From Candidatus Sigynarchaeum calidifontis (GTDB lineage Archaea > Asgardarchaeota > Lokiarchaeia > Sigyniarchaeales > Sigyniarchaeaceae), in the NCBI GenBank assembly GCA_030587475.2, contig JAUQYZ020000176.1, positions 1 to 37,528 of the forward strand: a stretch of 37,528 bases of DNA, in the 5' to 3' direction. The position numbers and the translations under genes were made by a program. The stretch's first letter is position 1, and each line of letters begins with the position of its first letter. Positions 1-2,058 of this stretch are shown here, piece by piece. The notes beneath the pieces were generated by a model. That model was given only the letters and a program-made list of their open reading frames with translations. It ran no database searches and had not been told where the DNA came from.

Positions 1-1
1 C

Positions 2-922
2 GGGGTTAACAGACACGCTCGGCGGGGGAACGAGTGCTGTGCCTGGAGGCAGCGTCGTAGGATGTCCCCCGATGGCGGGCGGGGGCGGGGGTGGCGTCGA
101 AAACGACGGTTTCTTGTCGCCAGGAAGGCTGGGCATTCCAGGGGGTGCTGGTGGACCCGAATGCGACATCCCCGGCGGGGATGGTGGTCCCGCGCGAGGC
201 ATGCTCGGTGGAGCGGGAGGGGCGCTCATCGATCCAGGCATTGCAATGCCCGCCGGAGGTGGCGGGGGTGGTGGAGAACGTTCCAGGATCTCGCATTTCG
301 CTTCCAGCTCCTTTATCCTTGAGGATTTCTCCTTCTCTGATTTGCGTGATTCGGCCAGTTCCTCCTCGAGCTCCTTGATTTTTTCACGTAATTCATCTGG
401 CTTCTCTTCTTCAATCTTGCGCTCTAAATTCTTGATGCGAGTCTTGAGCACGCGGATCTGTGAGTTGACAGTCGGGTCATCCCCGTTTTCATTGAATTGA
501 GAAAGGTCAAAATCCTTCTTCTGCTTGAGTTCCAATATTTCTTTTTTCTGGTCCTCGATCTTTTTCTCTAATTTCTTGTTTTGAGCATCGACCTTTTTCA
601 ACTGTTCAAGCGCTTCTTGGAGCTTGCTATTTTCTTCCTTCAAGCTCTTGACTTGGCTTTGGAGCTGCTCGATCTCCTCGCCGGTTCGCGCCGATGATCC
701 GGGTACCTTCGGGGCCAGAAAAGCCCCCTTGGCCAAGACCGTCAATTCCTTGATTTTCTTTTCCATCTCGGCGATCTTTGCATCTTTCTGCTCGATGACT
801 TGTTCCTTTTCCTTGATAGTGCTTTGGAGTTCTTCGATAACGCTTTTTCCCTTGGATTTATTCTCTTCGATCTCTTTCTTGAAACTGCTGAGAAAATCGT
901 TGCCTTCGCCTTCGCCGGACAT
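2..922 (-). CDS. Coiled-coil plus polyproline protein, C-terminus truncated by the window edge (not in the ORF track)
   Basis: Manual translation from ATG at 922 gives MSGEGEGNDFLSSFKKEIEENKSKGKSVIEELQSTIKEKEQVIEQKDAKIAEMEKKIKEL... An E/K/L heptad-rich region of ~215 aa is followed by SPPPPPPPAGIAMPGSMSAPPAPPSMPRAGPPSPPGMSHSGPPAPPGMPSLPGDKKPSFSTPPPPPPAIGG... No stop in 307 codons to the edge. Confidence 0.9.
   Translation of the reverse strand, partial: MSGEGEGNDFLSSFKKEIEENKSKGKSVIEELQSTIKEKEQVIEQKDAKIAEMEKKIKELTVLAKGAFLAPKVPGSSARTGEEIEQLQSQVKSLKEENSKLQEALEQLKKVDAQNKKLEKKIEDQKKEILELKQKKDFDLSQFNENGDDPTVNSQIRVLKTRIKNLERKIEEEKPDELREKIKELEEELAESRKSEKEKSSRIKELEAKCEILERSPPPPPPPAGIAMPGSMSAPPAPPSMPRAGPPSPPGMSHSGPPAPPGMPSLPGDKKPSFSTPPPPPPAIGGHPTTLPPGTALVPPPSVSVNP
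125..223 (-). repeat. Three degenerate 33-nt (11-aa) tandem proline-rich repeats inside the CDS
   Basis: APPAPPSMPRA (191-223), GPPSPPGMSHS (158-190), GPPAPPGMPSL (125-157). Confidence 0.75.
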
Positions 923-1074
923 GGAAAATCTCGACCAGATTTTTTATCGATATTGCTTTAATGGGAAATTAAATTTAAAACATTTTATTGGCATGCCGGT
1001 GGAAGCACAAAATTATACAAATCATTTTTTTTGCTCGGAGCCTTCTACCCTCATAAATCGGGCTGCATGGATAG

Positions 1075-2058
1075 ATGAAAAAACCATTCGATCTCGTCAT
1101 TCTTGGCCACATGGCCATGGATACTGTCATTCATGTCGAAAATGGGAAGCACAACGTGCACACGGTTAGTGCCGGCGGAGCCGTGACGTTTGGCGCCCTC
1201 GCCGCGAAAACGAGCGAGCCCTCGGCACGCATCGGGATCGGGTCGAAGATCGGCAAGGATTTCCCCGCGGAACTGCTTCAACCATTCAAGCAAAAGGATG
1301 TCGATCTCTCGTGCTTGCTCGTTGATAAGACATCGCCATCCACCCGTTTCGAGCTCGTGTATAACGCGGGCAAGCGCACGGTCTCTTGCCCGGCACGCTG
1401 CTCCGAATTACTGTTCGCTGAATTTCCCCCGGAGTTGTGGATGAGCAAACGGTTCCACATTGGTGCCATCTGCAGGGAGATCAGCTTGAAATTCATCGAA
1501 CAGATGGGTGAAACAATTGCGACACGAGTGCCCGTGGGTATAGATTTGCAAGGCGTGTTGAGAGACATCGATCCAAGCGGAAAGGTTGGCCTCTTAACGC
1601 AGCAAGAGGCCTTCGCGGCGACGCGCAGCATATACGACGTGTTCGGCGATCGGCTCGTCATCAAGGGCGACGATTTCGAATGCGCGGCAGTGAGTGGGAT
1701 CGATGATCCGGTCAAATGTATAGAATATTTCCTTGCAGAATTCAAAGAATCGACTATCTTGCTCACGCTCGGACGGAACGGCTCGTACCTGGGTAAAAAC
1801 GAGGGACGAAAGCCCGTTATCGAACGCATTCCGGCCTTCAAGCCTGCACAGATCGTCGACGAGACGGGGGCGGGCGACACGTTCCTCGTGAGTTTCTTGT
1901 CACGACTGAGCAATTCGGGCAGCTCGATAAACGCGTGCAAGGATGCCGCGCTGTTCGCGAGCGCGGCATCGTCTTTCCTCGTCGAGGCCACTCGTTGCCA
2001 GGGATTGCAATCATCGAAGGCCATCTTGGCGCGCGTGAAGCGAGCTGTCTACATGTAA
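1075..2058 (+). CDS. PfkB/ribokinase-family carbohydrate kinase
   Basis: N-terminal GHMAMD, AGGA, IGSKIGKDF, TLGRNGS and the C-terminal PfkB signature DETGAGDTF. Confidence 0.9.
   Translation: MKKPFDLVILGHMAMDTVIHVENGKHNVHTVSAGGAVTFGALAAKTSEPSARIGIGSKIGKDFPAELLQPFKQKDVDLSCLLVDKTSPSTRFELVYNAGKRTVSCPARCSELLFAEFPPELWMSKRFHIGAICREISLKFIEQMGETIATRVPVGIDLQGVLRDIDPSGKVGLLTQQEAFAATRSIYDVFGDRLVIKGDDFECAAVSGIDDPVKCIEYFLAEFKESTILLTLGRNGSYLGKNEGRKPVIERIPAFKPAQIVDETGAGDTFLVSFLSRLSNSGSSINACKDAALFASAASSFLVEATRCQGLQSSKAILARVKRAVYM

Follow-up and report, generated by a model that had tools for sequence, protein, structure and literature searches.

The first bases of a contig from the Asgard archaeon Candidatus Sigynarchaeum calidifontis carry an open reading frame (ORF) in which a long coiled coil is followed by polyproline tracts, and the question raised by this locus is whether an actin-regulating scaffold or elongation factor resembling formins or Ena/VASP proteins is encoded there. 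The window analyzed here, a stretch of 37,528 nucleotides, runs from base 1 onward of contig C108 of a 4.99-Mb, 89%-complete metagenome-assembled genome (MAG), and the gene is therefore cut by the assembly and not by biology.

The interrupted gene and its family

From an ATG at position 922, a minus-strand frame of 307 codons runs without a stop to base 2. It is a partial coding sequence (2..922, minus strand) for residues 1–307 of a 471-aa coiled coil/proline-rich/coiled coil protein, the 3′ end of which is lost at the contig edge. The missing C-terminal part was not found in the MAG's own assembly; it is supplied by P0002 (471 aa), a full-length protein from a sister MAG of Candidatus Sigynarchaeota that is 99% identical over all 307 residues. 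In the sister MAG, the same gene is annotated as a hypothetical protein. According to the AF2 model and the alignment, residues 1–215 (278..922, minus strand) form an N-terminal helical rod of three helices broken at residues 70–80 and 142–149. A P7 tract at residues 217–223 (254..274, minus strand), evident from both the sequence and the alignment, stands directly after this first coiled coil and is followed by the three repeats PPAPPSM, PPSPPGM, and PPAPPGM at residues 235, 246, and 257, with a spacing of exactly 11 aa (131..220, minus strand), by a P6 tract at residues 277–282 (77..94, minus strand) preceded by a conserved (K)PSFST, and by a further PPP at residue 299. The proline-rich region to which these elements belong is predicted to be disordered and covers residues 217–307 in the window (2..274, minus strand), extending to about residue 313 in the full protein; residues 217–307 are 41% Pro, and the part before them contains 1.9% Pro and 61% E+K+Q+L+R+D. 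Everything that the initial annotation had read from this minus-strand ORF, namely about 215 aa of helix, the P7 tract, the three 11-aa repeats, the P6 tract, and more prolines, is present. The poly-Gly and Arg-rich ORFs that lie opposite on the plus strand were rejected as antisense artefacts.

A word-indexed search of 5.8 billion proteins yielded five relatives with lengths of 471 aa (99% identity), 461 aa (81%), 440 aa (53%), 414 aa (46%), and 473 aa (43%; labelled Hodarchaeota), and because of these orthologues the ORF is not a product of chance. When 1.84 billion representatives at 50% identity were scanned in full by HMMER, only five clusters matched the family profile below E 1e-30, comprising three full-length forms and two C-terminal pieces, and the family totals five full-length forms (P0002–P0006) and two fragments (P0044 and P0045). 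The possibility that P0044 is a stand-alone C-terminal form was rejected, as it is actually a contig-edge fragment broken in the proline region; P0045 starts at the same point as P0044, right behind the proline arm, and is likely to be a fragment too. The next-best profile matches were compositional and included a collagen/WD40 giant and a eukaryotic formin (P0048), the latter over its coiled coil and FH1 only. No orthologue was detected when 300 other Asgard genomes were scanned with the profile, the only matches being under 40 bits and to other proline plus coiled-coil proteins, and a pattern scan of the GTDB representative genomes revealed no relative. The family is real, rare, and narrowly distributed, occurring in Sigynarchaeota and a few related MAGs, and it is not known from any cultured Asgard strain. 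In two independent assemblies, namely this MAG (window 1–300) and a Logan contig from another lineage (L061:1–600), the contig ends within the codons for the prolines; assemblers seem to be halted by the GC-rich CCN repeats, and the number of family members may therefore be underestimated because some survive only as fragments.

Conservation of the proline tracts in orthologues, a point on which the initial annotation had made its proposal depend, was borne out: each of the five full-length forms has retained the proline region, with a length of 35–128 aa and a proline content of 39–47%, while its length and repeat number drift. The P7 tract is located right after rod 1 in three of these forms (P0002, P0004, and P0006), P0005 has PPPP-A-PPP, and P0003 has a degenerate PLPTPPP. 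The PPxPPG motif is found in four of the five, with PPAPPAPG instead in P0004, and (K)PSFST-P6 in three. The layout of a coiled coil leading into several polyproline tracts is real and conserved among orthologues. Furthermore, invariant islands occur in both rods: rod 1 contains DFLSSFKK.I (DFLSSFKK corresponding to residues 9–16) and KKDFDLSQF.E.GDDPT...RVLKTR (residues 135–162), and two other invariant islands are EIDEFK...ILNLKTRRI.DL and YYNDLK.KYE.VY.MIQERD, the latter modeled with a pLDDT above 90. In ILNLKTRRI.DL, the residues L, N, K, R, I, D, and L are invariant in 5/5 forms, and the first and third positions, T/S, and R/H vary. Since such invariance is not expected of a generic coiled coil, the rod islands suggest specific binding.

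Upstream of the gene, a divergent intergenic region of 152 bp (923..1074) contains AT-rich TATA-like stretches about 20–60 nt from the ATG, which, as read from the sequence, may serve as the promoter. It is followed by a divergent gene for a PfkB-family kinase (1075..2058, plus strand), which is syntenic in the 4/4 lineages examined. Four lineages share a long syntenic block consisting of two small membrane paralogues, a YdjM-like gene, the PfkB kinase gene, and then the coiled-coil/proline gene, and continuing with a convergent gene of about 485 aa (gap of 10–37 bp), a gene of about 262 aa, and, farther away, ADH and Cdc6 genes. None of the neighbors is actin-related, and the neighborhood tells little about function because the entire block is conserved.

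The convergent gene product of about 485 aa (L003:8462-9919, minus strand) belongs to no Pfam family; a segment of it weakly resembles AbrB/SpoVT-MazE, its body consists of helical repeats, and its tail is long and acidic. Its gene is kept beside a DENN-like gene in 4/4 lineages. The 262-aa protein (L003:10025-10813, minus strand), encoded two genes past the window edge in the sister MAG, has orthologues in L005, L006, and L008 with 62–68% identity across four lineages and has at its N-terminus a beta domain of the zinc-ribbon type (CPxC...CGH). Modeled with AF2 (pTM 0.63), it matched members of the DENN family, including DENND1B (3tw8), folliculin (3v42; TM 0.59), C9orf72/SMCR8, and DENND10, with a Foldseek probability of 1.00 and E about 3e-4; on the strength of this model, the protein is a candidate Asgard DENN-like GTPase regulator. 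A 245-aa ORF elsewhere in the host genome (G000:C233, L010:1474-2211, minus strand) combines the zinc ribbon of the DENN-like protein (CPxC...CGH..IF.D.N..(I/V)RGY) with a roadblock/longin-like C-terminal part.

The C-terminal part compared with formins and Ena/VASP proteins

The missing C-terminal part had been named as the place to look for an FH2, WH2, or zinc-ribbon domain, and none of these was found; a second coiled coil of about 150 aa is present instead. Beyond the proline region, all five relatives continue with about 150 residues of charged helix. In the AF2 model of full-length P0002, which was based on a five-sequence alignment, helices at residues 7–69, 81–141, and 150–215 are followed by disorder at residues 216–319 and by helices at residues 320–350, 353–380, and 382–462, the last with a pLDDT above 90. 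The C-terminal part lacks cysteine and therefore cannot contain a zinc ribbon, and an acidic Trp tail is absent. A Pfam search of the protein gave only sub-threshold coiled-coil families and showed no EVH1/WH1 domain (PF00568) at the N-terminus or elsewhere in the protein. When the C-terminal parts of three orthologues were compared with Pfam, a single sub-threshold FH2 match (12.9 bits versus a cut-off of 34.8) appeared amid dozens of coiled-coil matches, and WH2/thymosin gave no match at E<=1 on residues 300–471 or at E<=10 on residues 310–370. The conserved ILNLKTRRI was considered as a WH2-like motif and rejected, as there is no WH2 match and its LKTR lies inside a predicted continuous helix.

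Foldseek with the full AF2 model gave no match, and an exhaustive VIA structure search with residues 314–469 returned only extended rods (kinesin stalk, tetherin, SAS-6, ROCK, NudEL, lamin, and tropomyosin) at Z about 7, the level expected of any long helix. A PDB sequence profile search gave coiled-coil noise only, and an internal duplication of the N-terminal half in the C-terminal half, hinted at by the LKTR motif in both, was not significant (E 0.22). The Protein Atlas yielded clusters of generic coiled coils and a structural row with a weak likeness to PspA; kinship with PspA/ESCRT-III was rejected, since no PspA_IM30 or Snf7 Pfam match was obtained at E<=1 and the sole lead was a TM of 0.35/0.62 to a low-confidence Atlas model. 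The protein is cytoplasmic, with no signal peptide or membrane segment evident.

Formins are composed of a coiled coil or dimerization region, FH1, and FH2 (Pfam PF02181), and Ena/VASP proteins are composed of EVH1, a proline-rich region, and EVH2 with GAB, FAB, and a tetramerizing coiled coil. The present protein resembles formins in that an FH1-like run of polyproline tracts of variable number directly follows a helix of 215 aa, and its family profile picks up the coiled coil and FH1 of a real formin by composition. In contrast to formins, it has no FH2, an extended coiled coil of about 150 aa stands after the prolines where the FH2 model has 372 positions, and homology is not detectable. 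With Ena/VASP proteins it shares a central proline-rich region and a helical C-terminal part, the final coiled coil of which could oligomerize; on the other hand, EVH1 and a detectable WH2-like GAB or FAB are lacking, a 215-aa coiled coil occupies the N-terminus, and VASP has a C-terminal coil that is several times shorter. The sole structural matches are generic rods at Z about 7, such as the kinesin stalk (6igv), NudEL (2v71), lamin (6snz), and SAS-6 (6yrl), none of which has an internal polyproline arm or a sequence relation to the protein. Because FH2, WH2, and a zinc ribbon are absent from the C-terminus and EVH1 is absent as well, the protein is not a relative of formins, WASP, or VASP and has no recognizable means of holding actin itself. 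Since the actin-binding domains are lacking, the likeness to formins and VASP is outward only, and a role in actin control is possible but only a candidate one.

Candidate polyproline readers and other proline arms in the host genome

The host is an Asgard archaeon. Its genome encodes a true actin (435 bits), two actin-related ORFs, gelsolin-domain proteins, and a profilin (P0009, 217 aa) whose first 125 residues match the solved Asgard profilins 5zza (E 7e-15), 7pbh, and 5yed. In the profilin (G000:C181, L009:1123-1776, minus strand), a Gly/Ser/Ala/Thr-rich linker also leads to a further helical stretch of about 50 aa with the conserved motif ..LLQWV.DP.GLA.FI.YCL.N.DQ..I..F.RFYR.LRQILG, and this extension is common to about 30 relatives of 214–227 aa in Sigyn- and Loki-type MAGs. 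A second profilin-like match (C233), weak against the profilin HMM, was rejected as a zinc-ribbon plus roadblock-like protein. FH2 was not found in the host genome; two weak matches (C243 and C1) are unrelated coiled-coil ORFs that match the same profile segment as the 12.9-bit one of the orthologue. Searches for GYF, WW, SH3_1, and WH1 in the 89%-complete host genome found none of them. The suggestion that the PPG-hydrophobic motifs are GYF ligands is thus left without a reader here, and profilin is the only candidate polyproline reader detectable in the host genome.

Among characterized Asgard profilins, those of Loki and Odin are described as not regulated by polyproline, and those of Heimdall and Thor bind a VASP polyproline peptide with a Kd of 0.2–3 mM (PMC8410842). 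The closest relative of the host profilin is a solved one from the Loki/Odin group. The same study notes that polyproline motifs are widespread in Asgard genomes and singles out no partner protein (PMC8410842), and a literature search found no native polyproline partner named for an Asgard profilin. In a 2025 preprint, formins and Ena/VASP are listed among the machinery of eukaryotic model systems, and literature mentions of WH2 in Asgard archaea concern only a motif inside gelsolins. A predicted complex of profilin residues 1–130 (19-row alignment) with residues 205–320 of the present protein, run without controls, scored 0.00 and counts neither way.

A six-frame scan of the host genome revealed about 25–30 proline-rich ORFs, and proline arms are thus a common building element there. 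A small pan-Asgard family with an EEFxxFL head, GPPPPP/PPG tracts, and the near-invariant end helix SLRGAIMGELK.LFAKRK occurs in 98 of 301 genomes of the phylum, and in 63/68 and 7/7 genomes of two families of the same order. Its copy in the host genome is a 141-aa protein (G000:C206:21394-21816, minus strand, equal to L036:1501-1923; GPPPPPGGPPPPP) with the end helix MSLKASIMDELKSLLAKRR. This end helix resembles the WH2 helix of WASP/WIP and membrane-targeting helices of the MinD/FtsA type, and it has no Pfam WH2 match. Two further host ORFs, G000:C132:16811-17779 (plus strand, 322 aa) and G000:C189:12942-13733 (plus strand, 263 aa), have PPGM/PPGV arms followed by a terminal helix resembling this one. 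Two more host proteins have proline arms. The one of 481 aa (G000:C82:13504-14949, minus strand) carries a zinc ribbon and a globular part at the C-terminus, and a GLLGELKQKL helix separates its two arms, which are very long and built of PPGxM/GPPGPMPGPPGAM repeats. In the one of 430 aa (G000:C49:19183-20475, minus strand), P8 lies at the N-terminus and a domain at the C-terminus, in addition to a long coiled coil.

The small family and the window protein have in common a helical head, an arm of the GPPPPP/PPGM type, and the lineage of their host, and their pre-arm helices match weakly by profile. They differ in that the window protein has no SLRGAIMGELK.LFAKRK helix, is three times longer, and possesses a second rod, and the small family is far wider, being present in 98/301 phylum genomes as compared with five clusters. 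An hhalign comparison of the two families gave a probability of 90% (E 1.7e-6) over the pre-arm helix, and the aligned stretches stop in register where the arm begins. The match has 13% identity and lies in a coiled coil, a known source of false positives. With filters off, the end-helix HMM had no match in P0002–P0006 at E<=1000, while the paralogue P0042 was found; the head HMM was insignificant against the window protein's family, and the profile comparison with the C-terminal half gave a probability of 0.8%. As the end-helix HMM and the C-terminal comparison were null and a single hhalign signal was obtained, the window protein is not placed in the small family.

Possible functions and their meaning

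Based on the architecture and its conservation, the tentatively preferred explanation, though one still held with less than even confidence, is that copies of the protein assemble through their coiled coils into a scaffold and that a polyproline reader, most likely profilin, docks on the proline arms. The two long α-helical rods would most likely pair or bundle with those of other copies and would be joined by a proline-rich arm of 35–128 aa in the polyproline-II form. The P7 tract, the PPxPPG repeats, and the P6 tract could act as low-affinity multivalent docking sites; with profilin as the putative reader, profilin or profilin-actin would be concentrated where the rods anchor, and the invariant rod islands may bind the anchor or a partner. 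The net design would be an "FH1 without FH2". Consistent with such docking, contiguous proline tracts remain at the end of rod 1 in all five forms down to 43% identity while the rest drifts, motifs of the rods such as YYNDLK.KYE.VY.MIQERD are invariant, the C-terminal residues 314–469 match only extended coiled coils, and the genome contains actin, gelsolins, and profilin and none of GYF, WW, SH3_1, or WH1. The polyproline binding of the Heimdall and Thor profilins also argues for it, although this binding is weak (Kd 0.2–3 mM) and the Loki/Odin profilins are not regulated by polyproline (PMC8410842). However, the arm varies fourfold in length and has lineage-specific tandem repeats as in spacers, about 25–30 other host ORFs carry proline-rich stretches, and the neighbors are not actin-related, the long syntenic block saying little. 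These points lead to the possibility, doubtful in itself and nearly as likely as the docking scaffold, that the coiled coils serve as a tether or as an element of a filament and that the proline region is only a semi-rigid hinge setting the distance between the rods; the prolines would then have no reader, and neither actin nor profilin would be involved. Such a hinge would agree with the 35–128 aa range and lineage-specific repeats of the arm, with the abundance of proline arms in the host genome and in other Asgard proteins, with structural matches that are all rods from tethers and cytoskeletal proteins, and with characterized Asgard profilins that bind polyproline weakly or not at all (PMC8410842). 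It accounts poorly for the pure P6–P7 runs, which stay at fixed places despite the drifting arm. Contiguous prolines stall ribosomes, and the spacers of prokaryotes are typically XP repeats rather than homopolymers, which likewise speaks against a mere hinge.

Two more specific alternatives are less probable. The protein could be a diverged and enlarged relative of the pan-Asgard small family, in which the post-arm helix (EV..LQ.ELR.LQ.RY) would correspond to the end helix and dock that family's partner. The hhalign match over the pre-arm helix, similar N-terminal motifs (EEFxxFL and DFLSSF), and PPGM-type tracts in both proteins of the host genome point in this direction, but the kinship is rendered quite unlikely by the null end-helix HMM in all five members, the insignificant head HMM, the 0.8% comparison of the C-terminal half, and the 13% identity of the hhalign match in a coiled coil. 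Least probable is a true formin- or Ena/VASP-like elongation or nucleation factor, in which the second coiled coil would hold actin, for example with ILNLKTRRI as a WH2-like LKKT, and the prolines would feed profilin-actin. The order of oligomerizing coiled coil, proline tracts, and helical C-terminal part does parallel VASP and formins, ILNLKTRRI.DL is largely conserved, and formin P0048 is among the weak compositional matches, albeit over coiled coil and FH1 only. On the other side stand the absence of FH2 beyond 12.9 bits in one orthologue, in a segment that unrelated coiled-coil ORFs match as well, a C-terminal part of 150 aa as against a 372-position FH2 model, the WH2/thymosin null even at E<=10, and the location of LKTR within a continuous predicted helix. 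As no actin-binding element is detectable, a strict formin- or VASP-like factor is very unlikely. The proposal of the initial annotation, a candidate actin-regulating scaffold or elongation factor, consequently stands in part: the layout and the host toolkit hold, whereas homology and an actin-holding domain are absent.

Returning to the docking scaffold, its most far-reaching form, an archaeal "FH1-only" actin-assembly scaffold in which an oligomeric coiled coil with multivalent polyproline arms would concentrate profilin-actin at a defined cellular site, is improbable at present. If it were true, polyproline–profilin coupling, so far demonstrated in Asgard archaea only with eukaryotic peptides, would be a native regulatory mechanism that arose without a formin or VASP. 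What the locus provides is a new protein family of narrow distribution, reminiscent in design of scaffolds that bear FH1; it does not yet constitute evidence that archaea regulate actin in a formin-like way, and its restricted occurrence gives it limited weight for the origins of eukaryotes. It also offers a cloneable candidate for a native profilin partner, a conserved cytoplasmic protein with P6–P7 tracts between two putatively oligomerizing rods. If the protein binds profilin, polyproline-guided actin assembly would predate eukaryogenesis, and if it does not, it still defines an unannotated family of Asgard coiled-coil scaffolds.
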